Below are positions 4,162 to 64,000 of a DNA stretch of 64,000 bases, in pieces. The position numbers and the translations under genes are program-made. The stretch comes from an uncultured Candidatus Saccharibacteria bacterium. Its GTDB lineage: Bacteria; Patescibacteriota; Doudnabacteria; UBA920. The notes below the pieces were generated by a model. That model saw nothing but the letters and a program-made list of their open reading frames with translations. It was not told where the DNA came from and did not search any database. Positions within the stretch are counted from its first letter, which is position 1; each line of letters starts with the position of its first letter. The stretch is taken from contig CAZHIA010000002.1 of assembly GCA_964532425.1 (NCBI GenBank), positions 77,945-141,944 of the forward strand. Direction: 5' to 3'.

Positions 4162-4890
4162 TTGCAATCGCACATGGCCCCGTACACGTATCACCGCCGT
4201 TGGGAAAAGGTGCTGCCAAGGCGTCGCTTCATCCAGAGATTGCAGGATGGCGCTTCTTTGGCCACCGAACTATTTGCCGCCGAGATCCATTCGGTAGTGG
4301 CTTTGGTGTTTGTATTCTTTGCGGCGAGTTCGGTAGCGTTGGGGGCAATGCTGGCTTCAAGCCAGGATATAGGCTTTGCAGATATTGTGCACGCGACTAG
4401 GATTCAGAGCACAGGGCAACCGCAGGTGGCAGGTGCGCAGATCTTTAATCCTCAAATTTTAGCTCAAACAGGTGATTTTGAAGCGGTGGTGTACCAAACC
4501 AGGGAATCAGGACAGGCCAATGGTTACCATTTAGAATGGAAACGGACGAAGGAGCAGCAGCTTTCCATAGCTGTCAATCACAATGTATTGTTGGACAAAG
4601 GCCCGTCCATCGGTTCAGTTGATTTTCAAGTGCCGGATGGTGCAGTTACTACGGTTGAGATTTTTTCCCGACCTGACCGGCGCGGTTCTGTATTAGCCTC
4701 TGTTGAGCTTGCTGCCAGCACTGGAACAGTTGAGTGTGGTTTGGAGCTCCCGCCTTTGGGGTGTGTATACCGGCTTGCCGGTCCGGAAGAGAATGCTGGA
4801 TTGTGCGGCATGGTCCTGGATTGTGTTGACCAAGGTAGTCAACCCGGATCCGAAGGACAGCCACTGGCTGTCGCTGGTCCGACTGAGTAA
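4162..4890 (+). CDS. Hypothetical protein with one hydrophobic segment; GC-elevated ORF
   Basis: 242-codon ORF bracketed by a promoter (4045-4074) and a terminator hairpin (4907-4938). No recognisable family and no clear RBS. GC is higher than in the flanks. Confidence 0.4.
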   Translation: MQSHMAPYTYHRRWEKVLPRRRFIQRLQDGASLATELFAAEIHSVVALVFVFFAASSVALGAMLASSQDIGFADIVHATRIQSTGQPQVAGAQIFNPQILAQTGDFEAVVYQTRESGQANGYHLEWKRTKEQQLSIAVNHNVLLDKGPSIGSVDFQVPDGAVTTVEIFSRPDRRGSVLASVELAASTGTVECGLELPPLGCVYRLAGPEENAGLCGMVLDCVDQGSQPGSEGQPLAVAGPTE

Positions 4891-4906
4891 AATACTTAAA
4901 ATACCA

Positions 4907-4938
4907 AGCGCCCCGACATCTATCGGGGCGCTTTCAAT
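4907..4938 (+). terminator. Rho-independent terminator (AGCGCCCCGA...TCGGGGCGCT + TTTCAATT)
   Basis: Perfect inverted repeat after the 4162-4890 ORF. Confidence 0.6.
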
Positions 4939-5012
4939 TGGCCATGGGACCCGGTATAATACCTAAGAAGACTATCCGGAATATGCCCCCGAATTGTTAA
5001 TCATCAATTACC

Positions 5013-15115: not shown

Positions 15116-15262
15116 GGCACTTGTTTAAATCACGATCGTGAGTTAAGCAAGAGGGCATGGTGATAAGTCGAGTTGTAATAATTGCTTAGGGAGGGGATGG
15201 TCGCGACCATCCCCTACAACGGGCACCAGCTGTGGTTGGTGTCTTTAAAAGTCGGTGAGGTT

Positions 15263-15330
15263 TTAAGCCAGAGAAAATTTTCTTTGGCTTTTTTATAAGA
15301 GCGTAGTCCCGCTTGGGTAAGCGGTTTTTT
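15263..15330 (+). terminator. Two tandem Rho-independent terminators (AGCCAGAGAAAATTTTCTTTGGCTTTTTT; CCGCTTGGGTAAGCGGTTTTTT)
   Basis: Hairpins followed by T-runs after the 13127-15115 CDS. Confidence 0.6.
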
Positions 15331-15554
15331 GAATAAGGGTCTTGACAGTTGGTGTACGTTCGTATACCATAGATTTGTACAGTGCCATTATTCCCGAGGA
15401 GGACGGATAGTAGTCTTAAAAACCGCAGTCTGCGGCGGTCGGGAAGACCTTTTGCCCTGAGCCCCCAGCTCATGCCCTTTTAGAGGGTATGGGTCTGCCC
15501 AGGGCATAAGGTTCTCCCGACTGCAAGCAGTGCGGGCAGTATAAGGAGGCCAGT

Positions 15555-15830
15555 ATGGCCAAAAAGAAAGAAGGCTGGTTTAAGCCCTTCATCCTCAATC
15601 CGCACAACGTCAATCGGGTTGTGCAGCCGGACAAGCCCGGAGTTTATGTGCTTGGTTTTATGGATAAGGACCGTAAATTAAAGATTAAGCACATGCGGGC
15701 GACCGGTAATGTCAAAGACGAGCTGATGAAACAGATCGGCAAGTATCATATTTTTATGTACAAGCCGCTCAAGTACCAGCTCGATGCTTTTCGTGCGCGG
15801 CATCAGCAGTCGTTGCAGTTCGGTTTTTAG
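15555..15830 (+). CDS. Small protein with GIY-YIG-like N-terminal motif (possible nuclease fold)
   Basis: 91 aa with a strong RBS ('taaggaggccagtATG'). 'KPGVYVLGF...IGKY' resembles the GIY...YIG signature. Weak. Confidence 0.4.
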   Translation: MAKKKEGWFKPFILNPHNVNRVVQPDKPGVYVLGFMDKDRKLKIKHMRATGNVKDELMKQIGKYHIFMYKPLKYQLDAFRARHQQSLQFGF

Positions 15831-15838
15831 TAGAATTT

Positions 15839-15951
15839 ACACGTTTTGCCCGATACAGAACACCAGGGCAAAACCCACAAGGGGCTTACCCGATTACTTC
15901 GTTATTTTGTTCCGCTTGACCTCACCGTACCATCCAGTACGGCTCGGCCAA
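15839..15951 (+). repeat. Structured ~112-bp element, copy A
   Basis: Imperfect direct repeat of 16139-16250. It contains the hairpins GTTTTGCCC...GGGCAAAAC and CCGTAC...GTACGG. Confidence 0.6.
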
Positions 15952-16138
15952 TGCTCGCAAAATGCCTCGTACTCGGCTAAGCGCGTAAATTCTACCCCCG
16001 TCCGATAAATCACCGACAGAGATTAGCGGGACATCCCTTGCAAGGGTCGGCAATCAACGCGGTCAATACGCAATCTTGCCATAAGGCGCTTGTAAGGAGA
16101 ACTTACCAAGATCGAAAGCGGGATTTATTTCCGGACTT

Positions 16139-16250
16139 ACACGTTTCGCCCAACACAAAAATCAGGGCGAAACCTGCAAGAGGCTTGTCCGATTACTTCG
16201 TTAAAATGCTCCGGTTGACCTCACCGTACCTCCAGTACGGCTCGGCCAAT
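16139..16250 (+). repeat. Structured ~112-bp element, copy B
   Basis: About 80% identical to copy A. Relative to A, the first hairpin shows compensatory changes (GTTTCGCCC...GGGCGAAAC). It is followed by the palindrome CCTGCCTGCCGGCAGGCAGG and a terminator at 16318-16349. Confidence 0.6.
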
Positions 16251-16381
16251 CCCTGCCTGCCGGCAGGCAGGCTCACATTTTGTCTCGTTCTCGGACAAGC
16301 GCATAAGTCCTCACTGAGCCCCGCCCTTTTAAAAGAAGGGTGGGGTTTTCTATTTGAGATGCTAAAGAGTATACTATTGGT

Positions 16382-16681
16382 ATGATTGAATGGCTTGTTC
16401 ATAAAGGATTGTTCAGGAATGCCAACCATGCTATTTGGTTTTTGTGCACAATAGGCATATTCTTGACCTTTGTTGTCTTACATTTTTATCCGCACTCTAC
16501 TGTTGCTTGGCTCATCGTTCCGGTGATTGTTCACATGCCGCCGCTTGTAACCGCCACGGTCTATCGAATTCGGAAGACGGACAGTGAGATTTATTCAGTT
16601 GATTGTATATGGTTTAATGCCGGTATGGTTACCCTGTATTTTATTGTCGGAATATTGCAATTATCCCGAAATGCTGGATAG
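16382..16681 (+). CDS. Hypothetical small membrane protein (3 predicted TM helices)
   Basis: 99 aa, strongly hydrophobic. Confidence 0.45.
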   Translation: MIEWLVHKGLFRNANHAIWFLCTIGIFLTFVVLHFYPHSTVAWLIVPVIVHMPPLVTATVYRIRKTDSEIYSVDCIWFNAGMVTLYFIVGILQLSRNAG

Positions 16682-16840
16682 CTGTTATATTATTGTAGTT
16701 CCCTACAAGACACGGTATGCAAGCCTTCGTTAAAATCCCGTCCAGGAACCAATCCCGGATGGGATTTTGTTATGTTTGGCTTATCCACACGTGATTTTGA
16801 CAATAGGTGAACGATTGTATACTATATAGATAACAATAAT

Positions 16841-17854
16841 TTGGTATATATGGACGAAATAAAAAAGGGTGAAATTGTTATTTATAAAGGTACGGAAGGT
16901 CTTGAATTGCAGGTGCGGATGGAGGGGGAGACGGTCTGGCTTACCCTGCAACAAATAGCCGATTTTTTTAAACGTGACAAATCTGTTATTTCTAGACATA
17001 TCAAAAATATCTTTAAATCATCTGAATTAAGCCAAAAATCAGTTGTTGCAAAAATTGCAACAACTGCAAAAGATGGAAAAACTTACCAGGTAGAGTACTA
17101 TAATTTGGACATGGTTATTTCGGTTGGTTACCGGGTTAATTCAACGCGGGCCACCCAGTTCCGCGTATGGGCTACACAGACACTGCGAAATTATTTGCTG
17201 AAAGGCTATGTGGTCAACGAGCAGCGGCTCAAGCAGCTCGAAACCGAACATGTTCATTTGAAGGAATTGGAGCAGGCTAACCAGCTGTTTGTACAGGTGA
17301 TCGAATCCCAGCGCGCTGAAGGGTATGAGAAGGAACTGCTCAAGATTATCATCGACTACACCAATACCTGGTTCGTGCTCAACCAGTATGACAAAGGCGA
17401 GCTGGCAGTGGCGGATGTTAGTAAAAAGAAAGCTGCGGCGCTGGATTACGAACAGGTTATGAAATCGATAGAAAAATTCAAGCAGCGGCTCGGGGCCCGA
17501 AAAGAAGCGGGAGACCTGTTCGGCCAGGAAGTGGGGGAGAAGCTCAAGGCCGTGCTCGGAAGTATCAACCAAACCTATGGCGGCAAGGACCTGTATCCGT
17601 CGCTGGAAGAAAAAGCGGCCCACCTCTTATATTTCTGTATAAAAGACCATCCATTCGCGGATGGTAATAAACGCATTGGCAGTCTGTTGTTTTTGCTCTT
17701 CTTAATCGAAAATCATGCGCTTACCAACCGTCGCGGAGAACGAAAGATCAATGACAGTGCCTTGGCGGCCTTGGCTTTGTTAATAGCTGAGAGTCAGCCT
17801 GAGCAGAAAGAGGTCATGGTAAAGTTGGTAGTGAACTTGATAAATAAACGATAG
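16841..17854 (+). CDS. RhuM-family N-terminal domain fused to Fic/Doc-type domain (HPFADGNKR motif)
   Basis: 337 aa. The N-terminus 'IVIYKGTEGLELQVRMEGETVWLTLQQIADFFKRDKSVISRHIKNIF' has the RhuM-family signature. The C-terminus 'HPFADGNKRIGSLLF' has the Fic/Doc catalytic motif. Confidence 0.75.
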   Translation: MVYMDEIKKGEIVIYKGTEGLELQVRMEGETVWLTLQQIADFFKRDKSVISRHIKNIFKSSELSQKSVVAKIATTAKDGKTYQVEYYNLDMVISVGYRVNSTRATQFRVWATQTLRNYLLKGYVVNEQRLKQLETEHVHLKELEQANQLFVQVIESQRAEGYEKELLKIIIDYTNTWFVLNQYDKGELAVADVSKKKAAALDYEQVMKSIEKFKQRLGARKEAGDLFGQEVGEKLKAVLGSINQTYGGKDLYPSLEEKAAHLLYFCIKDHPFADGNKRIGSLLFLLFLIENHALTNRRGERKINDSALAALALLIAESQPEQKEVMVKLVVNLINKR

Positions 17855-23314: not shown

Positions 23315-23411
23315 CGCACAGCATCCGGTTATCGGAAATACAGCACCTCTGACTTCAGAGGTGCTATTTTTATACAAAAAAATTGAGGCTCGAAATGAGC
23401 CTCTGCTGCTG

Positions 23412-23765
23412 TTAGGGTTTTGCGAGGAGCGCATCTGTCTGGTCTTGGGGGATGCACGTACAAAAAATATACCCTCGTCCGTCAGACGGCTTTCGTATTG
23501 CGGGAGGCCACATGTCCTTGGCGAGCCCTGCTTTTTCAAAACTCCGTTTCCATTCCTCCAGTTTGTTTTCCGCATCGGCGTACGGTGTGCTCTCATGGGA
23601 TTCCAGCCATTCCGATTGCACCATATAGTGTCCCTCAAACAAGCTGGCAAGATTGCCACCCATACCATGGGGTTTGTGCTTGTCGAGCAGGTTCTTGAGT
23701 GTTATGACAGTTTCCACAGCCCCCCTTGTTAGTCCCATAGTATATGGCATGGTACTGATTCTCAC
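23412..23765 (-). CDS. Hypothetical protein
   Basis: 117-aa ORF with no clear RBS. Confidence 0.25.
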   Translation of the reverse strand: MRISTMPYTMGLTRGAVETVITLKNLLDKHKPHGMGGNLASLFEGHYMVQSEWLESHESTPYADAENKLEEWKRSFEKAGLAKDMWPPAIRKPSDGRGYIFCTCIPQDQTDALLAKP

Positions 23766-23840
23766 AAACGGGAATTGGGACTGGTGAATAAAGAAAAAGG
23801 AAGGGCAAGCCCTTCCCGGGGGAGTGGTGTTGGAGGTTTG

Positions 23841-24233
23841 TTACGCGGTCATAGCCTGGAGTGATTCTTTCACCCATGGCACACTGCGCCGTTTTTGCGA
23901 AAATTGTTGAATACTCAGGAGTTCTCCGTCGATGCCGTGCTGAAGGAGAATGAACGGAATGTTGCTCTGGCCCATAAGAGCGGCGGCTGCATGGCTGCAG
24001 TTGGTGCTGAACAGGCAGAAGGCACTGCCGGTCCGCTGTGTTGATGCCATTTGCACCAGTTCCGCTTCCCGGTTTGAGTAATCATTGTCATTCGATTGGA
24101 ATCTGGTCTGGGTTCCGAATACCTCCTGGAGCGCGGCACTTTCGGTTTCATTCGGCATTCTGCCGATGCAGGTGACCTCGGTCACATTAGCGATGATGCT
24201 TTTTTCCAGCAACGCGATTAAATCCTCCTTCAA
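23841..24233 (-). CDS. Hypothetical protein (possible gene fragment)
   Basis: 130-aa ORF. There are weak hints of a Cys-containing catalytic segment but no firm family. Confidence 0.25.
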   Translation of the reverse strand: MKEDLIALLEKSIIANVTEVTCIGRMPNETESAALQEVFGTQTRFQSNDNDYSNREAELVQMASTQRTGSAFCLFSTNCSHAAAALMGQSNIPFILLQHGIDGELLSIQQFSQKRRSVPWVKESLQAMTA

Positions 24234-24375
24234 GAGTATGCGATGGATTTTGCCAAAACCTCGGAATCGCGAAAGGTGCGATCAGTGTTGTGAGAATCAT
24301 CCATCGCGTTATATGACGGTAAGAAAAAACCGGACTTTTGAAATCCGATCCTATTGCTCGCAAATAAGAGACAAA

Positions 24376-24402
24376 AACCCCCGCCTTTTTTAAAGGCGGG
24401 GA
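24376..24402. terminator. Bidirectional terminator (CCCCGCC TTTTTTAAA GGCGGGG)
   Basis: Perfect GC stem flanked by A- and T-runs, downstream of rpsT on the minus strand. Confidence 0.7.
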
Positions 24403-24407
24403 ATAAG

Positions 24408-24671
24408 TTATTGAACCTTGGCTATGGCTTTGGCAAGCCGGCTCTTTTTACGCGAAGCGGTGTTCTTCTTGATGACGTTGGTCTTGGCAGCTTTGTCCAG
24501 GGTGGACATGGCTTTTTTCATGGCATCCATGGCTTCGGATTTTTTGCCAGCCGCTACAAGCTTTCTGACTTCTTTGACAGCAGCTTTGAACTTGTTTTTG
24601 ACTTCCTGGTTGTGGTTTTTGCGGCGATCTGACTGCCGCATAGCCTTGGCTGCTGACTTGGTATTAGGCAT
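24408..24671 (-). CDS. rpsT: 30S ribosomal protein S20
   Basis: 87 aa, basic. The N-terminus 'PNTKSAAKAMRQSDRRKNHN...' is typical of S20. Confidence 0.9.
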   Translation of the reverse strand: MPNTKSAAKAMRQSDRRKNHNQEVKNKFKAAVKEVRKLVAAGKKSEAMDAMKKAMSTLDKAAKTNVIKKNTASRKKSRLAKAIAKVQ

Positions 24672-24794
24672 TGCGATATCGATAATTAATGGTTACAGAC
24701 ACAATGAGCGTTGTTGTGTAACACGGTACATCGATTGTACCATTTTACTTGAAAAAAATCAAGGGCATGCGTATTCGCATACCCTGTAAGAAGA

Positions 24795-31442: not shown

Positions 31443-31462
31443 CCACCCTTTGGGTGGTCATC
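31441..31462. terminator. Hairpin TGACCACCC TTTG GGTGGTCA
   Basis: Perfect stem immediately after the LOG gene stop. Confidence 0.5.
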
Positions 31463-31494
31463 CCGGACCTCGATCCGGGATCCAGGTTACGGAA

Positions 31495-31530
31495 AACTAC
31501 AAAAAAATACCCGCAGCAAGAGCTGCGGGT
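31495..31530 (-). terminator. Terminator for minus-strand gene (AATACCCGCAGC...GCTGCGGGTATT + T-run on minus)
   Basis: Perfect inverted repeat preceded on the + strand by AAAAAAA. Confidence 0.6.
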
Positions 31531-31583
31531 ATTAAAATTCCTCCACGGGGACCACGGGGACCATGGAGGAATTTTGGATTGGG

Positions 31584-32033
31584 TTATCTGCCCGCATCCA
31601 GTAACGGCTGGATTCGCTCGAGCAGAGCGGGAAAAGTATTGGTAGCGAGTTCTAAAAATAAACCGAGGTTTTTCCTCACGCGGGCCACGTTCTTCATCTC
31701 AAACGCTACTGCGCCGCGCTTGGTGCTGTATACTTGTTCGTTCTCGGTGGTTTGAGTGAACTGACACTCGGCATTGACTCTCAATGAGGAAGATCCCCAG
31801 GAAACAGGTTCTATTACGAGCACCCATTTGCAGTCCTCATTTTCGAGCTCTTTCGTCACTGGTTTTAAACTCCGAGAGTCGTAGTTTTTTGGGAGGTGGG
31901 CGCGCAGGTCCCGTTCTGTGGTTAAACTGAGGGTGGTGCTTGTAACCAGCTCAATCTCGTGGCGCATCCGGTTGATGTTGGGAGAACCGACCACTATTTC
32001 ATCGGCCATGTAGTCAAACTTCGTCTTTCCCAT
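31584..32033 (-). CDS. Hypothetical protein
   Basis: 149 aa with a strong RBS (GGAGGAAATAT upstream of the ATG on the minus strand). Confidence 0.5.
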   Translation of the reverse strand: MGKTKFDYMADEIVVGSPNINRMRHEIELVTSTTLSLTTERDLRAHLPKNYDSRSLKPVTKELENEDCKWVLVIEPVSWGSSSLRVNAECQFTQTTENEQVYSTKRGAVAFEMKNVARVRKNLGLFLELATNTFPALLERIQPLLDAGR

Positions 32034-32262
32034 ATTTCCTCCTTTTTCAGAGACCCTTTCGGGTTTGCCTTTTCAGGCATGTCTGGCTTTCCAGACACCT
32101 TATTTAAGCATTATTATCCAGAACATTCAAGGGGAGGGCTGGTCATTTATGGGGTGGGTGAATAGGATAAAGAGTTGAATGGGGGAGATGGGGAAAAGAG
32201 ACAAATTAAAACCCTCTCGCGAGAGAGGGTTTAACTATAAGCTATAACCTGCTACCTATAAG

Positions 32263-39100: not shown

Positions 39101-39220
39101 ATAGGTATTATAGCATTTGGCTTATTTCCATAGGGGGTAATAGTAAAACTTTGCTTGTTTATGAACTAAATGTAGATATTGATTAAAATAAGCCATATTT
39201 ATAGAATTTACCCTTATCTA

Positions 39221-39249
39221 TTGACAAAAGTACAGAAATAATGTATAAT
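39221..39249 (+). promoter_or_regulatory. Consensus sigma70 promoter TTGACA-17-TATAAT
   Basis: 'ttgacaaaagtacagaaataatgtataat'. Confidence 0.6.
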
Positions 39250-39399
39250 ATAGTTTAAGTAATAAATAGCTCTTTAAATACTTCTTTCTGTCTTATGGGG
39301 AGCAAACTAACCGTTTACTCTTATTGGTAACGTTTGGTTTTTTCCCCGTAAATTCGCTGAATTTCGACGAAGTGCCAGTCGGAACACCGAAAAAGGGAA

Positions 39400-39579
39400 G
39401 GAGAGAGAATGTTTATCACGCATCCGGTCATCCGTGGAGCAATACTAGGCTTCGCTTTGGGAGTGTCGGTCGCCTTGTTCTTTTGGCCGCAGGGTTCGTC
39501 GCGGCCCACGGGATTGCTCTATATCCTGATCGTCGACCTGGTAGTGTTTGCCGTGTCGACCTTCTGTCTCCAGAGAGAA
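39400..39579 (+). CDS. Small membrane protein (59 aa, MFITHPVIRGAILGFALGVSVALFFWPQGSSRPTGLLYILIVDLVVFAVSTFCLQREE)
   Basis: Absent from the ORF track because it is under 60 aa. Very strong RBS 'aaagggaaggagagagaATG'. Two hydrophobic helices. Confidence 0.45.
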
Positions 39580-39900
39580 GAGTAGACAAGGGCGAGAGGT
39601 GCTAAAGAAGATGTGGTAGCACCTGTACGCGCCAAGGAGTACACAGGTCGCTGGTGCGGTCAAGGAGGAAGCGGGAGTTTATTCGGGGAAGTGCAGAGCC
39701 ATACTCTGCCTTTCCCCACCTTTTTCCAGACCAGGATAGCAATATCGTGGTCGTGGAAATTGGTACTTGTCCGAGAACCGTGGGGACGCGATAAATCCGC
39801 GGGGCTGCAGCTGGGGCTTATCCCGAGCAGGACATCAGGCATCCTTCAAACTGACTAGCCTGCCCAGACCGGAGAAACCGGTGGCAGCGAAGGAGGAAAA

Positions 39901-45433: not shown

Positions 45434-45773
45434 TGAGTAAAAATAGGGTTTGTAGGATGCATAGGATGGATAAAACAGATACCGCCTTCTTTAATAAGGA
45501 AATTAAAATATAAAATTCCTCATAAGTAAGACAAATATAACGAATTCTCGGTTTGGGGTTTAAATGCTGCTTGGGACTTTTGGCGGATAGAGTTGAGGAT
45601 AAGCCCCTCTGTTTTTATAGAGGAGGGTGGGGAAAAGGCTGATATTGCTTGATTTTTATGCCCCCTTGTAAGTTTGCCTGATTTGTGCTATCATATGTAT
45701 ATACATACCACACGACTTTGGGGAGAACTGGATTAGAACCCACAGTTCCCGCTGGGGAATAGAGGGACAAAGC

Positions 45774-45802
45774 TTGACCAAGTAAAGCTTGACGGGTATA
45801 AT
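45774..45802 (+). promoter_or_regulatory. rpoB promoter candidate TTGACC-17-TATAAT
   Basis: 'ttgaccaagtaaagcttgacgggtataat', about 430 nt upstream of rpoB. Confidence 0.5.
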
Positions 45803-46182
45803 CCCAATATGCACAATTTCATAAGATTTTAAGCCAAGCAACATCGGCCTTTTTTGCGTATGCAAAAAAGGATAGATTTTTATGCACTCATAGCAGCTTT
45901 TGACAGCTGCGAGACTCTGTGATCTTATGAATTCTTAGGCTAAATGCCTTTTGCTCCTCGCTAAGCGGGAAACCGGAAGTCCGGTTTCCTTGCGGCAGCC
46001 GCCTCCAGCAGCGGCTGAAAAATTTTCCTTCGGTTTTTGTCGTCGTAGGCAGACTTTAAGCTCAGGTGGTGACGAGAGCTTGATACCTACGGCTGTCTAC
46101 GCCTCCAAAGATCCTTGGAAAAGCATTTGAGCGGAGCAGGCTGAGCCTGACAGCATCATTACAACTAAAGCGCCCCGAGGAC

Positions 46183-54332: not shown

Positions 54333-55661
54333 TTAGTATATTGCCGTGGCGATGTACGTGATGAGGTTCTGATACGTGCCTTGCGGTTGGGTGGCACCGA
54401 CCCTGACGCGGTAGGCGACATAGCCTTCGTCCCCGCTGGCCGGGGCATTGTTGGACATAATAGTGACCGAGCTGGAACTATTGAAGCCGGCGGAGTTAAA
54501 GGTTCTTCCCGAATCGTTGTAGTTGAAGGTCATGGTTGGGCTACCGGCCTTGGTCTGGAGGGCGTAGCCGAACCCGTTAGCGGCATTATTGTCCGCAGCT
54601 GTCACGTTGTAGTCGGAAATGACCGTGCCATTGGTCTTGCGCAGGGAGCCGTCGGACTGGGCCGTAACGATGTATCCGCTGTTGGAGTTGGTATCGATAT
54701 GGATGAACTGGGCAGCCGTACGGTTGGTGGATACGGTCAGTGTGCCCAAGGGAACCGTGGTGGCCGTGGTGGTCACATCCATGCTGGTACCGGCTACAGT
54801 CGTGCCGGAGTTAACCGGATTGATGGTGAATGTCAGGGTTGGGACGACCGTAGCCGTAGCGGAAACCGATTCAATGACACCAACCCTGCCGGTGGTGGTA
54901 TCGACTATGTTGCTGCTGCCGTCCTGCTCATCAACCTGGACCGCATAGGTGTCAGCCGTGCCTTGGACCGCGGTTTTGGTGGGGTTTAAAAGCTTGTTGG
55001 TGTTACCGATCGTGATGGTAATGGCAGTGGCGGCGGCAATAGTTCCGGTGAAAGGTACCGTAATAACCACGTTGGAGGCCGGGGAGGAGGTGGTAATGGT
55101 GCCAGCCGTACCGCCAGTGAGGGAGATGTCGCCCGCGGTAATGCCGTTAAAATCGAAGCCGCTTGCTCCAGGGATGCTATTATTGGCGCCAGTGCCGTCT
55201 CCGGGCATAGTAATGACAAATTTGCCTGCCGTGACCGCCGACCGGGTAGTGAATGTAATGGTATGTTTTGAAGTCATTTTCAGGTACAAATAACTAGTAC
55301 CTGAGGTGTAGGTCCCGGTCAAGCCGGTGGTCAGGTTTAGCTGGGTTACGCTGGGAATTGAAGCGATTACCCGGTTTTCAGAAGACGTACAGGTATTAGT
55401 GGTACACAGGGTTATGGTGTCGCCTTGGGCAAGGCCGAGCGTACTGCCAACCGTAATGGTCGTATCATTCGGGTTGCCATTGCCGCCAAAAGCCGTGGCT
55501 ACGCTTGGTCGGGAAGTAGACAGGGTGTCCTTGACGCTCGTGAGAGCGCCGACGGCATTCAGATTGAAAGGGTAGAGCAAGGCGGGTAAAATGAGCGCAA
55601 ACAGCAAAAATAGTATGCGCTTCGGCGCTGTTTTATTATGTAAGCGAACCAAAAAGTTCAT
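54333..55661 (-). CDS. Secreted Thr/Ser/Gly-rich β-rich surface protein, paralog A
   Basis: 442 aa. An N-terminal hydrophobic anchor or signal is followed by the conserved 'GALTSVKDTLSTSRPSV' motif. A conserved C-terminal strand reads 'YRVRVGATQPQGTYQNLITYIATAIY'. Confidence 0.8.
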   Translation of the reverse strand: MNFLVRLHNKTAPKRILFLLFALILPALLYPFNLNAVGALTSVKDTLSTSRPSVATAFGGNGNPNDTTITVGSTLGLAQGDTITLCTTNTCTSSENRVIASIPSVTQLNLTTGLTGTYTSGTSYLYLKMTSKHTITFTTRSAVTAGKFVITMPGDGTGANNSIPGASGFDFNGITAGDISLTGGTAGTITTSSPASNVVITVPFTGTIAAATAITITIGNTNKLLNPTKTAVQGTADTYAVQVDEQDGSSNIVDTTTGRVGVIESVSATATVVPTLTFTINPVNSGTTVAGTSMDVTTTATTVPLGTLTVSTNRTAAQFIHIDTNSNSGYIVTAQSDGSLRKTNGTVISDYNVTAADNNAANGFGYALQTKAGSPTMTFNYNDSGRTFNSAGFNSSSSVTIMSNNAPASGDEGYVAYRVRVGATQPQGTYQNLITYIATAIY

Positions 55662-56004
55662 ACAGGAAAATTTTATTTCGGAAGATTTTTGATGAAATTA
55701 TTATAGCACAAATAAAAGGAATATGGCAAAGAGTTGATATTTCCTCGGGCAGGCAGGTCAGCTTGCCAATGCAGGAGGCAACTGTAGGGTAGGGAAGGAT
55801 AACATCCGGCCGTTCTGAGCGTATTAACGTATCAAAGCGGGAGCGGGCCGCTATCGCACGCCCCTACGAGGAACAGTTACAGTGTAGGGGCAGCCGACCC
55901 TGCCTACCGGCAGGCAGGAGGCATCCGCCATTCACGAAAGCTCCGAAAGATTCCTGTTAAGGCGGTTGGTCGAGCGAGTCTGGGGAAGGTGGAAATCAGA
56001 TTCA

Positions 56005-56100
56005 TAAGATGAATAGGACATATGGAACGATTAGGACTGATAGGGCAAATAGGATGAATGGGTTGGATAGGATTGATAGGATAAATAGGTTAGTTGATAA
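56005..56100. repeat. Phased ATAGGA-word repeat, copy 2
   Basis: Homologous to 54060-54140 and part of the tandem-duplication unit. Confidence 0.6.
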
Positions 56101-56252
56101 GGCTGTGTGCCAAGGAGGCGGGTACAAAAACACTCCGATCGCTAAATCGGAGTGTTTTTATATCAGTGTTAATCAGTCCCAACATCAGTGTTTATCCGCG
56201 TTACTACCCACTGCTGTGTATGTATTCTATTTACTGTTTACTATTCACTATT

Positions 56253-57578
56253 TTAGTATATTGCCGTGGCGATGTAGGTAACCAGATTTTGGTAGGTGCC
56301 TTGTGGCTGGGTGGCGCCGACCCTGACGCGGTAAATTACATAGGATTCATCGCCTGAGGCTGGGCTGCCGTTTTGCATAATGGTTACCGGGGTGGAGCTG
56401 CTAAAACCCTTGGAGAAGAAGGTGCCACTGTCGTTATAATGGAATGCTGAAGGAGTATTGGTCTTGTCCTGGAGAGAATAGCCAAAGCCATTATTAGCAT
56501 TGTTGTCTGCCCCGGTCAGGTTGTAGTCTGAAATGACCGTGCCGTTGGTCTTCCGGAGGGAACCGTCGGACTGGGCTGTCACAATATACCCGCTGTTGGA
56601 GTTTGTGTCGATATGGATGAACTGGGCAGCCGTACGGTTGGTGTTGACGACCAGGTTGCCGAAAGGCACGGTGGTGGCTGTGGTGGCTACATCCGTGGTG
56701 GCGCCGGCAACTGCTGCGCTAGCCGCTACCGGGTTGATGGTAAAGGTGAAGGACGGGGTAACGGTTGCTGACACGGTGACCGGTTCGATGGTGCCCAGTG
56801 AGGCGGTAGTGGTATCAACCACATTACTGCTCGCGTCTTGTTCATCGATTTGTACGTTCGTAATATCAGCCGTGCCTTGGACCGCGGTTTTAGTGGGGTT
56901 GAGAATTCTGGCGGTGGTACCGATCGTAATGGTAATGGCGGTAGTGGCGGCAATGGTTCCGGTGAAGGGAATGGTAATGACCACATTAGAGGCTGGGGAG
57001 GAGGTTGCGATTGTGCCAGCCGTGCCTCCACCCAGGGTGATTTCAGCGGTTGTGATGCCGCCAAAGTCATACCCGTTCGCCCCAGGGATGCCGTTGTTTG
57101 GGCTGCCATCGCCTGGCAAGGTCACGACAAACTTGCCGCCCGTAACTGCTGAACGGGTAGTAAAGGTAATGGTGTGCTTTGAAGTAGCCTTATAGATGGC
57201 AAAGCTTGACGCGGTAAACGGGTTGGTGGTACCTGCCGTAAGTGCCAGTTGGGTCTGGCTTAAGATTGCGGCAACCGTGCGTGTCTCGGAGGTGGTACAA
57301 GCTGCGGTAGTACACAGCACTATGCTGTCATTTTGCACGATTCCATTGGTGTTAGCCACGGGAATAGTGGTGTCGCCGGCGCTGACCGACCCGGTAATAG
57401 CCGTGTACACGCTGGGGCGAGAAGTGGAAAGGGTATCTCGCAAGGAGGTGAGGGAACCTGCTGCATCTAGGCTGAACGAAGCTGGGATTAGGGCCATTAC
57501 TGTGAGGAACATGGTAATCGTAGCCAGCGAAAGCAGTTTTTTATTAGTTCTTGCTGCCTCTAAAAGAGACTGCCGCAT
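56253..57578 (-). CDS. Secreted Thr/Ser/Gly-rich surface protein, paralog B
   Basis: 441 aa. About 60-70% identical to paralog A, with the same N-terminal motif ('GSLTSLRDTLSTSRPSV') and C-terminal motif ('QNLVTYIATAIY'). Its 3' flank (terminator plus repeats) is about 90% identical to that of paralog A. Confidence 0.8.
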   Translation of the reverse strand: MRQSLLEAARTNKKLLSLATITMFLTVMALIPASFSLDAAGSLTSLRDTLSTSRPSVYTAITGSVSAGDTTIPVANTNGIVQNDSIVLCTTAACTTSETRTVAAILSQTQLALTAGTTNPFTASSFAIYKATSKHTITFTTRSAVTGGKFVVTLPGDGSPNNGIPGANGYDFGGITTAEITLGGGTAGTIATSSPASNVVITIPFTGTIAATTAITITIGTTARILNPTKTAVQGTADITNVQIDEQDASSNVVDTTTASLGTIEPVTVSATVTPSFTFTINPVAASAAVAGATTDVATTATTVPFGNLVVNTNRTAAQFIHIDTNSNSGYIVTAQSDGSLRKTNGTVISDYNLTGADNNANNGFGYSLQDKTNTPSAFHYNDSGTFFSKGFSSSTPVTIMQNGSPASGDESYVIYRVRVGATQPQGTYQNLVTYIATAIY

Positions 57579-57784
57579 AAGAGCTTTTTTATTTCTTAGA
57601 GCTTAAAATCCTTTTTATTATAGAGAAAATTTTTGAATTGGGCAAATGAAAAATGGTTTTGATATCCACAATGGGGCAAACGGCAAAGTAAGAGGTGTTC
57701 CGCCTTAAGGAGCCCTATAAAGTCAATAAACCCCGCGTCCAGCGGGGTCTTAGGAAAAGGTTGATTTTGTGTTGCTCTTATATT

Positions 57785-59104
57785 TTAATATACCGGTGTG
57801 GCAATGTAGGTTACCAGGTTCTGGTATGCACCCTGCGGCTGGGAGGCATTGATCCTGACTCGGTAAGCGACATAGCCTTCGTCTCCGGTAGCCGGCGAGC
57901 TGTTGGACATGATGGTAACCGGACTAGTGCTGCTAAAACCAGCGGAGTTAAAGGTCCTTCCTGAATCATTGTAATTAAAGGTCATGGTCGGGCTGCCTGC
58001 TTTGGTCTGGAGCGCATAGCCAAACCCGTTGGTTGCATTATTGTCTGCTGCTGTTAGGTTAAAATCAGAAATGACCGCACCATTGGTCTTCCGGAGGGAG
58101 CCATCGGACTGGGCCGTGACGAAATAACCACTGTTGGAATTTGTATCGATGTGGATGTACTGGGCCGCCGTACGGTTGGTCGCCACGACCAGGTTTCCGA
58201 AGGGTACTGTGGTGGCTGTGGTGGTAACGTCCGTGTTGACCCCTGCAATCGTGGTCCCGGAGTTGACCGGATTGATGGTAAAGGTAAACGAGGGAACTAC
58301 AGAAGCGGAAATTGTTACCGGTTCAATGGTCCCGACTGAGACCGTGGTAGTATCCACCACGTTATTTCCACTGTCTTGCTCGTCGATTTGCACCGGGAAC
58401 GTGTCAGCCGTGCCTTGGGTAGAGGTCTTGGTTGGATTAAGCAGCATATTCGTATTGCCGACCGTGATGGTTATAGCGGTGGTGGCGTTGATCGTGCCGG
58501 TAAACGGGATGGTAATGACGACGTTGGAAGCCGGGGAGGAGGTAGTGATAGTGCCGGCAGTGCCTCCGGTTAAGGAAATGTCGGCGGCAGTGATTTTGTT
58601 AAAATCGAACCCGTTCAGCGCCGGGATGCTATTGTTCGGCCCGCCGGCATCTCCGGGCAAGGTGACCACAAACTTGCCGCCCGTCACTGCCGAGCGGGTG
58701 GTGAAGGTGATGGTATGTTTCGAAGCTGATTTTAAATAGACATTCCCGCCTCCGGCATAGCCATTGGCAGTACCAGTAGTCAGGCTGATCTGGGTATTAT
58801 TGGGGACAGAGCTGATCACTTTCGTTTCCGTAACCGTGCATCCCGCATTACAGAGCGTGATGGTGTCACCTTGCAGTAAGCCGACCGTGCTCGTAACGGT
58901 GATAGTGGTGTCGCCCAAGGTTACCGCGGACATGGGGGTGGCCACGCTTGGGCGCGAGGTTGACAGGCTGTCTTTTACCGTGGTCAGGGAACCGCTCGCG
59001 TTCAACTGAAAGGTGGCAGGGGTAAGAATAAAAACAATCATAATAATACTTATGATTGCCCATGAAAACAGCTTTTTCTGAAAGCTGGAGAAAAAATTCA
59101 CCAT
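57785..59104 (-). CDS. Secreted Thr/Ser/Gly-rich surface protein, paralog C
   Basis: 439 aa. Shares 'GSLTTVKDSLSTSRPSV' and the C-terminal 'YRVRINASQPQGAYQNLVTYIATPVY'. Confidence 0.8.
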   Translation of the reverse strand: MVNFFSSFQKKLFSWAIISIIMIVFILTPATFQLNASGSLTTVKDSLSTSRPSVATPMSAVTLGDTTITVTSTVGLLQGDTITLCNAGCTVTETKVISSVPNNTQISLTTGTANGYAGGGNVYLKSASKHTITFTTRSAVTGGKFVVTLPGDAGGPNNSIPALNGFDFNKITAADISLTGGTAGTITTSSPASNVVITIPFTGTINATTAITITVGNTNMLLNPTKTSTQGTADTFPVQIDEQDSGNNVVDTTTVSVGTIEPVTISASVVPSFTFTINPVNSGTTIAGVNTDVTTTATTVPFGNLVVATNRTAAQYIHIDTNSNSGYFVTAQSDGSLRKTNGAVISDFNLTAADNNATNGFGYALQTKAGSPTMTFNYNDSGRTFNSAGFSSTSPVTIMSNSSPATGDEGYVAYRVRINASQPQGAYQNLVTYIATPVY

Positions 59105-61212: not shown

Positions 61213-62202
61213 ATGCGAAATAAATTGTGCAAATGGCGCTTATTCGGGGGTTTCGTTGCCGTTGTCATGTTGGTTGCGGGGTTCCTTGCCATCGGAGCGC
61301 CGGCCCGGGCGCAAATGGGTCCTGCTGGCCAGGGGCTAACCATTACTCCATTTTTGCTCGAACGCCAGATGCAAAAGGGTGATACGAGTAATGAGATTAT
61401 TGACATTATCAACACTTCGGATCAGCCGATGCCGGTGGACATTACGATCAACGATTTCGTTCCTGTCGGAGACAATGGCCAGCAGCTGTTTATGGATGGG
61501 GGAAAGGGCGATCCCCGGTACTCGCTGTCCAGCTGGATAACGATCGAAAGTAATCCAAAACAGAATCTGGCGCCGCATGAACGCACGAGTCTGGAATTCT
61601 CCATTCATCCGCCGATGAATGCCGAAGATGGTGGGCATTACGGAGCGATCCTTTTCAGCTTTATGCCCCCGCAGCCCGAAGGCAGCGCTGTAGCCGTAGC
61701 CCAGAAGTTGGGTGCCATCATTTTGGTCAAACTCGGCAAAGTCAGCGAATCCGGGCAGATCGTCAAGTTTGGAGCAATCAAGTTTTTTCATGAGTATCCG
61801 CCTGTAGAATTCACGACAGTCTTCAAGAATACGGGAAATGTGCATGTGAAGCCGCGCGGTTCCATTGTGGTTACCAACATGTTTGGTCGGAAGATAGCCA
61901 GTGTCCTGGTAAATGAGAATGCCAACAATGTCCTGGCTGATACCGAACGCGCATTTACGAGCACCTGGAAGGATCGGTTCGGGTTTGGTCCGTATCGGGC
62001 AGAGGTGAGGCTGGTGTACGGGGATTCAGGACAAATAGAGACAGCTCGTACTACTTTCTGGATTATTCCTTGGAAGATCACACTTGCTGTTGCTGCCGGA
62101 CTATTTATACTGCTCGTATTGCTTATTGGCGGTGTCCGTCGCTACAACCGCTGGTTGCTCAAGAGGGCATATGCGGTCCAGCCGGTCAAAAAGGATAAAT
62201 AA
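61213..62202 (+). CDS. Cell-surface protein with N-terminal signal peptide and C-terminal TM anchor + basic tail
   Basis: 329 aa. Signal 'VAVVMLVAGFLAIGAPARAQ', a ~270-aa β-rich ectodomain, and the C-terminus 'ITLAVAAGLFILLVLLIGGVRRYNRWLLKR'. Confidence 0.7.
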   Translation: MRNKLCKWRLFGGFVAVVMLVAGFLAIGAPARAQMGPAGQGLTITPFLLERQMQKGDTSNEIIDIINTSDQPMPVDITINDFVPVGDNGQQLFMDGGKGDPRYSLSSWITIESNPKQNLAPHERTSLEFSIHPPMNAEDGGHYGAILFSFMPPQPEGSAVAVAQKLGAIILVKLGKVSESGQIVKFGAIKFFHEYPPVEFTTVFKNTGNVHVKPRGSIVVTNMFGRKIASVLVNENANNVLADTERAFTSTWKDRFGFGPYRAEVRLVYGDSGQIETARTTFWIIPWKITLAVAAGLFILLVLLIGGVRRYNRWLLKRAYAVQPVKKDK

Positions 62203-62285
62203 GCTCGTACGAATAAACACCTTCGCGAAAGCGTGGGTGTTTTTTTATAATCCGGAGGGCACCGCTTATCCGTATAGCGAAGCAT

Positions 62286-62441
62286 TCCTGCAGTGTAGGG
62301 GCAGCCGATCCTGCCTGCCGGTCATCGACTCCGAGGCCGCCCAGACTCGAGGAGCAGGCAGGAGGCGCCGGCTTCTTAAAGCACCAAAAACAAATCTCAA
62401 ATTACAAACAATATCCAAATTTCAAATTCAAAATTCTGCAG
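62286..62441. repeat. ~155-bp direct repeat, copy 1 (GTAGGGGCAGCCGA + split CCTGCCTGCCGG...GCAGGCAGGAGG hairpin + AT-rich CAAAT words + TGCAG)
   Basis: About 90% identical to 63411-63568. Confidence 0.8.
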
Positions 62442-62496
62442 ATTGGATATTGAATATTGTCTCCCTCTGGGAGATCTACCGCAGGTATGAGGTATG

Positions 62497-62650
62497 AGGA
62501 AGTAGTCTCAAAACCTCCTTGTGGCGTCATTCTGAGTCCTGAGTTCGACGAAGGACGAAGAATCTCATGATCGGTAAGAGATACTTCGGTCGTCTGACTC
62601 CCTCAGTATGACGCCGGAGAGGGAGTATCCTGGTTTTGAGACCGCTTCTA
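62497..62650. repeat. ~150-bp palindromic structured element
   Basis: The arms 'TCTCAAAACCTCCTTGTGGCGTCATTCTGAG' and 'CTCAGTATGACGCCGGAGAGGGAGTATCCTGGTTTTGAGA' can pair around a ~65-nt GC-rich core. Confidence 0.55.
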
Positions 62651-62699
62651 GAATAAATCTTAAAATTTGATGCTTGGGATTTGGAATTTGAACGGCGGG

Positions 62700-63700
62700 C
62701 AGCTGACGCTAGCCCCTACGGGGAACAGTGTCCTGCAGCGTAGGGGCAGCCGACAGGCGTCAGTTAAAACGTATCACAAAATCATCAGGAGAACGGGCTG
62801 CTGTCGCACGCCCCTACACCAGACAGGTGTGCCTTGCGGCGGAGGGGTAGCCGCCTTGAGAAGCACCAAGCTCCAAATTGCAAATACCAAATAATATCCA
62901 AATCTCAAATTTAAAATTTTGCAGGTCTTGTGTATTGGGAGTTGGTATTTAATTAAGACTGGATGCTTGGGTTTTAGAAATTTTTGAGACCGGCAACCAC
63001 CACTTGCCCTTACGGGGGATCGTGTCGTGCAGTGTAGGGGCAAGCGATAGCTGCCCGTTTGGATGGTTGTACTATCTTATTCAGAGACGGTCGGATTATT
63101 CGCGTAGAATTTTTTTGTCACGCCTCCCTGTAAAGAAAACGCAGTCCACAAAAATTTTCAAAGAAATTTCGTACCCTGCAAAATTGTGCGCTCGATAAAT
63201 CTTCCGGAGGAAAATAAATTACATTTTGAATTTAGAATTGGATTTTCAAACTCTTAAGTAGGCTTGCTCCTGCATAGATAAAGTGCACCCACAGTGTAGG
63301 GGTCACCGATAAGGATCACAAAAATCGTATTTGCATTTTCTGCATGAGCGGGCTGCTCCTGCCTGCCGGCAGGCAGGATCGCACACCCCTACAGAAATCA
63401 AATACACCTTCCTGCAGCGTAGGGGCAGCCGATCCTGTCTGCCGGTCATCGACTCCGAGGCCATCCAGACTCGAGGAGCAGGCAGGAGGCGCCCGCTTCT
63501 TAAAGCACAAAAAAACAAATCCCAAATTATAAATAATATCTAAATTTCAAATTTTAAAAAAATTGCAGTTTTTGAATTTTGGATATTGTGATTTATTTGG
63601 GATTTGGTACTTGAGATTTGGAATTTGAAAGGCGGGCTGCTATCGCACACCCCTACACTGCAGGGAACAGTGGGATGTATTTGTAGGGGCAGGATTCATC
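62700..63700. repeat. Array of ≥5 irregularly spaced hairpin repeats of type CGCAC[A/G]CCCCTAC-N13-22-GTAGGGGCAGCCGA (loop often contains GGAACAGT)
   Basis: Instances occur at about 62705-62765, 62790-62850 (a variant), 63005-63060, 63375-63435 and 63634-63700. One more lies at 55845-55905. Spacing is irregular at 250-380 bp. Confidence 0.75.
63411..63568. repeat. ~155-bp direct repeat, copy 2
   Basis: About 90% identical to 62286-62441, including the split palindrome and the terminal TTGCAG. Confidence 0.8.
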
Positions 63701-64000
63701 CGCCCGCTGCTACATGACGGCCTGTTGTGGAGGGGGCAGCTGGCGCTCGCCCCTACAAAGAACAGGACTACTGACAGCGTAAGGGTGAAATTTACCAATG
63801 CGCCATCCGATGGTGCTTTGGATTTGTCATGTCCACATCGTCTACCCTGGGCGGTAAAGGCGGGTAGGGTACAGGAAGTGACGCGTACTGGATCGAATGC
63901 ACTCCTTCCGCTTTTCTGCTTGACATTCTTAAAAACAACGATATACACAAGCAGGCCAGAAAAAAAATTGGGGAAAAAGTTGCCAAGGGTATTACCAAAT

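Follow-up and report, generated by a model that had tools for sequence, protein, structure and literature searches.

What occupies the last 1.8 kb of this stretch of DNA from an uncultured Candidatus Saccharibacteria bacterium (64,000 nucleotides of contig CAZHIA010000002.1, hereafter the window), given that positions 62203-64000 contain no credible gene, tRNA, or Rfam RNA? A first-pass annotation, made from the sequence, had described this field as packed with three kinds of repeat or palindromic element, and all three are present above chance. The field is real and non-coding. We consider it probable that it represents a cluster, mosaic in structure, of repetitive extragenic palindromes (REPs) with a GTAG tag, resembling bacterial interspersed mosaic elements (BIMEs) and REP doublet hairpins (REPINs), that is, an ordinary kind of element in an unusual host. 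Lodged in it is a second module, the perfect 20-nt palindrome CCTGCCTGCCGGCAGGCAGG, which is separate from the REP unit and behaves like a tiny insertion.

The field starts right past the intrinsic terminator of a DUF916/WxLIP-like gene (61213-62202), whose homologues belong to Patescibacteria wherever they are named. The earlier judgement that no convincing open reading frame (ORF) is present was borne out, as every one of the 14 ORFs of at least 40 aa lies over repeats, and a homologue search with the translation of one repeat-derived ORF found no candidate. A tRNA/tmRNA scan found none, Rfam gave 0 matches at the gathering threshold in the whole window and only noise at E<10 over the field and 15000-16900, and no sigma-70-like promoter was detected in 61900-64000, where 2.5 were expected. 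The field probably does not yield a coded product. An independent assembly of the same organism breaks within it, a 5.8-kb contig ending there, as is expected of repeats.

The field is built from about 14 copies of a 25-nt unit, and about 16 units are found at two extragenic loci across the 64 kb. Reading from the GTAG of each GTAGGGG, with left arms taken as reverse complements and the palindrome removed where present, revealed a common plan, in which GTAG and GGGY precede a single bulged base, an inner stem of 3 bp with its GAYA loop and returning partner, and a final GCCC, giving a stem of 7 bp with one bulge and a loop of 4 nt. The word GTAGGGGCAGCCGA occurs exactly at 55884, 62295, 62740, and 63419 and in degenerate form at 62841, 63034, and 63296; allowing up to three mismatches, there are 14 matches versus 4.4 expected, and none of 100 shuffles reached 14. 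GTAGGGG itself is found 16 times in the window versus 5.2 expected, with 11 of the 16 lying within 62295-63756. Among the 11 units that were aligned, 96.1% of the 77 stem cells form standard pairs, and two inner pairs are changed on both sides (GC/AU/UA and GC/CG), which makes the changes compensatory. This pairing and covariation was matched by 0 of 500 column shuffles, and sliding the partner by 1-3 columns left only 34-58% pairing. GTAG is invariant across the aligned units, and three degenerate units read GGAG, GTAA, and GTAA. Two subtypes could be distinguished: a left subtype with inner stem TGC/GCA or AGC/GCT, always inverted, and a right subtype with GCC/GGC, once AGC/GCT and once GGAT/ATCC, always direct.

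Most units are joined as tail-to-tail (TT) dimers, CTAC-N16-26-GTAG. The window contains seven of these, six in the field and one isolated at 55843-55929, and the field also holds two solo right-type units. The first-pass count of at least five hairpin units therefore holds only for degenerate arms, because the strict pattern CGCAC[AG]CCCCTAC-N-GTAGGGGCAGCCGA, with a gap of up to 26 nt, occurs only twice (55855-55897 and 63380-63432); the six field dimers are counted with degenerate arms allowed. The word GGAACAGT, which had been described as frequent in the loops, is present in the spacers of three dimers; CTGCAGY directly 5' of GTAG(GGG) is the stronger conserved feature, with 7 matches versus 0.6 expected. 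When the two arms of a dimer are paired together, they always leave the same 4x4 mismatch of CACA versus CAGC, as read directly in the sequence. The inverted pairs can fold as a hairpin or as a clover, of which the dimer at 63631-63708 is a three-way example. All dimers, including the isolated one, share one orientation on a strand of uniform GC skew.

Either one dimer or two consecutive dimers, the latter connected by a conserved linker (compared between 62750-62802 and 63305-63357), are enclosed by a T-rich arm (...GATTTGGAATTTGAA) on one side and by an A-rich arm (TTCTTAAAGCAC-CAAAT words) on the other. As had been noticed, these arms are arrays of CAAAT/ATTTG words of about 7 nt, in three A-rich and three T-rich copies. 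Tandem Repeats Finder (TRF) reported period 7 at 63595-63627, and CAAA spacings are mostly 7 (6, 7, 7, 11, 7, and 6 in arm 1). The two kinds of arm are 74-81% complementary over 36-49 nt and, since an A-rich arm directly abuts the T-rich arm of the next unit, they can also be folded into AT-rich hairpins that separate the GC-rich cores (z=-3.3 for 63498-63630). The direct repeats reported at about 155 bp were found to be 92.4% identical over 145 nt (62285-62428 and 63409-63553), with lower identity onward to 62441 and 63566. Like parts of the field are offset by 483, 642, 937, and 1124 nt; these offsets are inconsistent, which makes the field a mosaic instead of a simple tandem array. In the T-rich arm at 62442-62693, unrelated sequence of about 190 nt intervenes, and part of it is a 150-nt hairpin at 62499-62648 that is single copy in the window (z=-5.5; folded as well by 0 of 200 shuffles). 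The core of this hairpin, GTCATTCTGAG...GAAGAATCTC, resembles GTCATYCYxxx...GGAATC/GGATC hairpins that adjoin the 20-nt palindrome at seven loci in other genomes (loci are numbered L; here L005, L034, L078, L090, L123, L126, and L150). Arrays or AT-rich hairpins of CCAAAT/ATTTGG 7-nt words, much like the arms of the window, were also seen in metagenome-assembled genomes (MAGs) labelled as other phyla, namely at L076 1600-1745, L178 2365-2475, and L094 5878-6070. L076 is 80% identical to window positions 63571-63626 over 56 nt, and the arrays of L094 and L178 adjoin the palindrome.

The first-pass suggestion of a nest of REP/MITE-like elements (MITE, miniature inverted-repeat transposable element) was supported: the units fit the structure of GTAG-tagged REPs, the dimers form a mosaic cluster, and the nesting is real. 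On the REP explanation, a transposase of the REP-associated tyrosine transposase (RAYT) type (HUH/Y1, IS200/IS605-related), presumably located at another place in the genome, would copy the dimers, themselves non-autonomous, in the form of single-stranded DNA hairpins. For the E. coli enzyme TnpA-REP, cleavage is reportedly lost when the GTAG is mutated or the bulge is closed. Growth of the cluster would then have come from local re-insertion and from segmental duplication; this fits the 92%-identical repeat of about 150 nt, which would be the most recent event. The palindrome would be an independent and far more widespread mini-element, precisely added to or lost from individual copies without target duplication. 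Uniform orientation on a strand of constant GC skew fits single-strand transposition, and local duplication explains it equally well. Any effect on the cell would probably be exerted through stable hairpins past the terminator, by protecting transcript 3' ends, by termination, or by binding of protein or gyrase, all of which are effects proposed for REPs and BIMEs. A gene-free, assembly-breaking stretch of 1.8 kb would then be accounted for by a REP/BIME-type cluster and not by a missed gene or a known RNA.

Several results weigh against this explanation. A number of units fold no better than shuffles (z +0.45 to -1.8). The exact dimer pattern had 0 matches in 185,579 species-representative genomes; it was found in three metagenome stretches, two of which are the same locus, with no kinship beyond the GTAGGGGC hairpin, and in 15 heterogeneous-looking viral stretches, which by rough estimate is about the chance number. 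With the pattern nearly absent elsewhere, the REP family looks lineage-specific, and its mobility is something we infer. The 62 kb outside the field hold a single dimer, and the syntenic regions of relatives (56-62% protein identity) are without the field. No Y1/RAYT or other transposase domain was found in the 35 window ORFs of at least 150 aa, and none was evident among smaller ORFs in the gaps, so the window gave no transposase with matching ends and mobilization is likewise inferred. This search covered the window up to 64000, and a RAYT gene would be expected beyond that position.

With respect to relatives, the low-GC relative L005 has about 2.1 kb of AT-rich, gene-free DNA (4770-6890) after the orthologous DUF916 gene, with GC-rich islands carrying palindrome-like variants (cctgcctgccttgcggtaggcagg), followed by an HTH_17 gene and then a large surface protein. 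Relative L007 has the same gene order as L005 and a gap of only 480 nt.

The alternative that survives best is that the field encodes structured non-coding RNA, either tandem paralogous small RNAs, as the first-pass annotation had also considered, or long hairpin RNAs in which the arms form a basal helix and the GC-rich hairpins its branches. We regard this as unlikely. One argument for it, the conservation of stems through compensatory changes, is equally expected of DNA hairpins recognized by a transposase, and G-T pairs occur in stems on both strands, so that neither strand is favored. Conserved single-stranded spacer words, the location of all units on one strand, and the predicted multi-branch folds would suit RNAs, as would the length of the gene-free region in a compact genome. 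On the other hand, degenerate and truncated units are present as in decaying repeats, the syntenic loci of relatives are without the field, and, as described above, neither an Rfam family nor a sigma-70-like promoter was found.

Another possibility, which we consider quite unlikely, is that each composite of T-rich arm, GC-rich core, and A-rich arm is a MITE whose terminal inverted repeats are long and AT-rich; it would be mobilized by a DDE transposase, with the GTAG hairpins as passengers. The complementarity of the arms is what such elements would need, and the interruption of one arm by another element is reminiscent of nested MITEs; similar CCAAAT-word hairpins in other phyla (L076, L094, and L178) could be read in the same way. 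However, each A-rich arm pairs just as well with the T-rich arm of the following unit, so the boundaries of the units are ambiguous, and the isolated copy at 55843-55929 is a GC-rich dimer without arms. Recognizable target-site duplications are lacking, as is a transposase in the window.

A protein-binding or replication region (iterons, a partition site, or an origin), with the words and palindromes as binding sites, is very unlikely. Phased short words, AT-rich stretches beside GC-rich palindromes, and the long non-coding region past the orthologous gene in relative L005 would agree with it, but the GC skew never changes sign in the window, no replication or partition gene is adjacent, no DnaA-box-like word was seen by eye, and the sequence is not conserved in relatives. 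We give next to no credence to an array of CRISPR (clustered regularly interspaced short palindromic repeat) or integron type, with the repeats as direct repeats or attC sites between cassettes, since the clustering of imperfect palindromes with strand asymmetry is offset by irregular spacing (98-643 nt between like units, for which reason CRISPR had already been discounted), units that are inverted pairs and not direct repeats, gaps that are themselves repeats, and the absence of a cas or integrase gene from the window. The CRISPR, integron, and origin readings were accordingly rejected on spacing, gene content, and GC skew.

Turning to the palindrome, CCTGCCTGCCGGCAGGCAGG occurs without mismatch at 16252-16271 and at 63358-63377 and, differing by one base, at 55899-55918, where no copy would be expected by chance; the first-pass annotation had located it to within 1-8 nt. 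Two further copies are split, as had been recognized, and alignment sets the insert at 33 nt (62322-62354 and 63446-63478) instead of about 35. Three sites in the window are found both filled and empty. In the first, GGGCTGCT runs directly into ATCGCACACCCCTAC at 63634, 55845, and 62795, versus GGGCTGCT, CCTGCCTGCCGGCAGGCAGG, and ATCGCACACCCCTAC in succession at 63350. In the second, GTAGGGGCAGCCGAC is followed by AGGCG at 62740, versus GTAGGGGCAGCCGAC, the one-mismatch palindrome, and AGGCA at 55884; this site is also seen with the 33-nt hairpin in the center of the palindrome. The third is a hairpin repeat of about 170 nt, without the palindrome at 15835-15995 and with it at 16135-16305, the copies being otherwise 84% identical. 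Each difference is exactly 20 nt, without duplication of any flanking base, and the palindrome occupies the same loop position, GAY^A, in both REP subtypes. As the palindrome lies in the REP loop and the 33-nt hairpin lies in the palindrome, the nesting is three levels deep.

The two copies of the 170-nt repeat differ by several compensatory changes (TTATTTTG/CAAAATG versus TTAAAATG/CATTTTG, and CTTACCCGA/TCGGCTAAG versus CTTGTCCGA/TCGGACAAG) and have no Rfam match. An ORF of 91 aa with a PGVYVLGF motif, GIY-YIG-like by eye, precedes them (15555-15830), and a Fic/RhuM gene lies past them at 16841.

The palindrome is also widespread in other genomes. Exact CCTGCCTGCCGGCAGGCAGG was found in at least 120 genome stretches from many phyla, whereas by our own arithmetic about 0.5 would be expected by chance for 596 Gb, and in 35 viral stretches versus 0 for two composition-matched control palindromes. 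Hosts among the matches listed include many Patescibacteria lineages, Omnitrophota, Planctomycetota, Chloroflexi, Bdellovibrionales, Thermodesulfovibrionales, MAGs labelled Gamma- or Deltaproteobacteria, and Bacteroidota, the last including cultured Winogradskyella, Flagellimonas, Longitalea, and Flavivirga. One viral contig carries six copies (L045, L052, and L053). Another, IMGVR_UViG_3300025106_000007, ends its locus (L058, 3916-4142) in at least 10 head-to-tail 21-nt units of CATGCCTACCGGCAGGCAGGc, so the natural unit may be 21 nt. At least five dispersed palindrome variants lie in the same 4 kb of L058, and its G-to-A variant CCTGCCTACC is the variant found at window position 55899.

Clean filled and empty pairs were also found in L056, L142, and L063, which brings the number to six, and none of the six shows a target duplication. 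In L049 (2239-2330), the palindrome lies in the variable loop of a predicted tRNA, and once it is removed the 92-nt tRNA-Met call becomes a canonical tRNA of 72 nt; such clean restoration was obtained in L049 only, as most tRNA-like hosts are 5' fragments. Copies in tRNA or tRNA-like sequence were seen in L056 (495-560 and 824-860), L142 (4406-4520), L074, L096, L144, L158, L088, and L165, several of them at the D-loop position, and the 5' fragments mostly have an intact empty copy nearby. In L056, a GIY-YIG-like gene (by eye) separates the filled copy from the empty one. The palindrome is further found in frame, reading LPAGRQ, inside apparently intact conserved Patescibacteria genes, with frames assigned by eye (L072 5955, L102 2000, L106 3381, and L130 5886), among them an FtsK-like gene (L072) and an rpsF-like gene (L106). 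That the frame is always LPAGRQ implies a net in-frame insertion of 21 nt.

Flanks were compared at 161 non-redundant palindrome sites. Direct words of at least 7 nt are shared by the two flanks at 18% of sites versus 3.6% of permuted pairs (p=1e-16), because the palindrome is often embedded in word arrays of about 7 nt like the arms of the window. Flank complementarity was not significant (p=0.11). A general preference for hairpin loops was rejected, as 22% of sites versus 19% of control positions lie in predicted loops (p=0.16). A 7-bp target duplication was rejected as well: an immediate flanking repeat of at least 7 nt was present at only 7 of 161 sites, about 90-fold over the permuted rate, and at none in the window.

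The 33-nt module was found in no viral contig and was seen once elsewhere, in L162 (901-957), where TCATCGACTCCGAGG-N20-CAGACTCGAGGAG adjoins a palindrome copy. Its arms are those of the 33-nt insert of the window and its loop is longer, so the third-level insert is a module that exists elsewhere too. In both the window and L162 the insert sits after CCGG.

That the palindrome is identical in different phyla and is present in phage contigs suggests horizontal spread. It is quite possible, and we put this forward tentatively, that CCTGCCTGCCGGCAGGCAGG and its close variants, often effectively 21 nt, represent an undescribed pan-bacterial, phage-borne mini mobile element, among the smallest known, that is inserted or removed precisely and without duplication of the target. 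Its landing sites would be REP loops, tRNA loops, 7-nt word arrays, and conserved genes in frame; it would be spread by trans-acting machinery common to the phyla or carried by phages; and the field would be a place where three or four hairpin modules nest in one another. A literature search found no paper with the 20-mer, the GTAGGGGCAGCCGA word, or the LPAGRQ peptide. That bacteria of the candidate phyla radiation (CPR), cultured Flavobacteriia, Planctomycetes, and viral contigs share an identical 20-mer, which is there or missing at sites that are otherwise alike, points either to a tiny element moving between and within genomes or to a conserved process that writes exactly this sequence.

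Table 1. Features of the field and related copies elsewhere in the window
Feature	Position	Strand	Remarks
Intrinsic terminator of the upstream DUF916/WxLIP-like gene	62215..62245	+	Stem-loop, then T-run; start of the gene-free field
Direct repeat of ~150 nt, copy 1	62285..62441	+	REP with palindrome and 33-nt insert, then A-rich arm
Solo right-type REP	62295..62372	+	GTAGGGGCAGCCGAT; palindrome left half 62310-62321; nested 33-nt hairpin 62322-62354; palindrome right half 62355-62362; AGGCGCCGGC
A-rich arm 1	62373..62441	+	CAAAT array, period ~7 nt; ends in TTCTGCAG
Interrupted T-rich arm	62442..62693	+	By comparison with intact arm 63567-63630; hairpin 62499-62648 inside
REP dimer b	62694..62762	+	Tail-to-tail CTAC-N20-GTAG; right unit with empty loop (GCCGAC-AGGC)
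REP dimer c	62792..62858	+	Right unit degenerate (GGAGGGGTAGCC)
A-rich arm 2 (62859-62924), then T-rich arm 2 (62925-62987)	62859..62987	+	Together can form one long AT-rich hairpin
REP dimer d	62988..63060	+	Left unit degenerate; right unit canonical, GTAG GGGCaAGC GATA GCTGCCC
Degenerate solo REP	63296..63320	+	GTAGGGGTCACCGAT...
REP dimer e	63347..63497	+	Left loop with intact palindrome 63358-63377; right palindrome (63434-63445, 63479-63486) split by 33-nt hairpin 63446-63478; fold z=-4.7
Direct repeat of ~150 nt, copy 2	63409..63566	+	
A-rich arm 3 (63498-63566), then T-rich arm 3 (63567-63630)	63498..63630	+	81% complementary; long AT-rich hairpin, period-7 words
REP dimer f	63631..63708	+	Both loops empty; three-way clover fold
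REP dimer g	63731..63795	+	Right unit degenerate (GTAAGGGTG...)
Isolated REP dimer between two surface-protein paralogs	55843..55929	+	Field orientation; right unit with one-mismatch palindrome 55899-55918
20-nt palindrome in copy 2 (~16135-16305) of the unrelated ~170-nt hairpin repeat	16252..16271	.	Copy 1 (~15835-15995) is the empty site

The gene content upstream of the field is ordinary, and the window has a GC content of about 49% and a GC skew that keeps one sign throughout. Upstream genes include rpoB, rpoC, three paralogous surface proteins, polA, uvrB, ruvA, a murein ligase, and a type IV pilus ATPase. The surface proteins are tandem paralogs of about 440 aa (54333-59104, minus strand) with signal-peptide-like N-termini and no Pfam match, and this neighborhood, together with the DUF916 gene, is kept in relatives L005, L007, and L008. 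The idea that the repeat copy at 55845 mediated duplication of the paralogs found no support. The paralogs are only 68-69% identical, so the duplication is old, whereas the repeat motifs match field copies exactly or nearly, and the copy lies at one of two junctions. Other gaps in which no ORF reaches 150 aa, unusually long for a compact genome, lie at 23315-24794, 39101-39900, 45434-46182, and 31443-32262; the first holds an rpsT-like small ORF (24408-24671) recognized by eye, and the other three have no Rfam match.

How does the field compare with known systems? GTAG-tagged REPs are defined by a stem of 6-13 bp, a short loop, an unpaired GTAG end, dispersed extragenic copies, and head-to-head or tail-to-tail dimers 1-100 bp apart (Di Nocera et al. 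2013, PMC3733652). Of the five defining features of GTAG REP/BIME systems that could be examined, four are found here, and the fifth, association with a RAYT, is missing within the window. Like the REPs, BIMEs, and REPINs of E. coli, Pseudomonas, Stenotrophomonas, and others (PMC3733652, PMC3116915), the field has a unit of about 25 nt with an unpaired GTAG end, a 7-bp stem, and a short loop, subfamilies set apart by compensatory stem changes, opposite-orientation subtypes in TT dimers 16-26 nt apart, and conserved extra-palindromic motifs; it is extragenic, lies past a gene 3' end, and forms a cluster of several hundred bp. TT dimers have been described in GTAG families, some of which also have self-complementary inner loops of up to 27 bp, and RAYT-type HUH/Y1 transposases bind GTAG REPs in the form of single-stranded hairpins and cleave them in a GTAG-dependent manner (PMC3733652). 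The field differs in its probable Patescibacteria host, which lies outside the eight phyla of the 2013 survey and would place GTAG-type REPs in Patescibacteria (PMC3733652), in the lack of a RAYT in the window, in low density outside the field, and in loops that carry an unrelated pan-bacterial 20-nt palindrome.

As in a BIME, REPs of two types alternate in orientation within a mosaic, and extra-palindromic motifs are conserved. In a REPIN, a pair of inverted REPs a conserved distance apart forms a single hairpin (Bertels & Rainey 2011); the spacers here vary from 16 to 26 nt, with the constant 4x4 mismatch. Clusters of REPINs can exceed 700 bp and tend to adjoin a RAYT gene (PMC3116915). The GTAG-15 family of Anabaena variabilis, with REP dimers inside long AT-rich palindromes ATTTGATTnnTGAAA--TTTCAnnAATCAAAT (PMC3733652), shares with the field the central position of REP dimers in a long AT-rich palindrome and arms with ATTTG/CAAAT and TGAAA/TTTCA words. 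Its REP and arm sequences differ, and the arms of the field are longer (about 65 nt) and word-periodic, with units chained over 1.6 kb.

The elements of the field resemble MITEs in being small, non-coding, hairpin-forming, nested, and clustered, and differ in that filled and empty pairs show no target-site duplication and the search for matching transposase ends found none. In-frame insertion, as the palindrome appears to show in the genes of other genomes, is known from Rickettsia palindromic elements (RPEs) and some REPs; RPEs are, however, about 100-150 nt and CGTC-tagged, and there is no intragenic palindrome copy in the window.

The closest likeness for the palindrome is found in the small dispersed repeats SDR1-8 of Nostocaceae, which Elhai et al. 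in 2008 reportedly described as non-coding units of 21-27 nt, precisely inserted, nested, and often located in heptamer arrays. By this description, the palindrome shares with SDRs a length of 20-21 nt, precise insertion, heptamer-word arrays, nesting, and the lack of coding capacity. SDRs are reported to be confined to Nostocaceae, whereas the palindrome is found in Patescibacteria, Bacteroidota, Omnitrophota, Planctomycetota, MAGs labelled Proteobacteria, Chloroflexi, and viral contigs. The palindrome, like the modules that accompany it, has the look of a very small insertion common to much of the bacterial domain. If this is true, the very small mobile repeats known from Nostocaceae would extend to much of that domain, and their mechanism would become testable by phylogenetic profiling.

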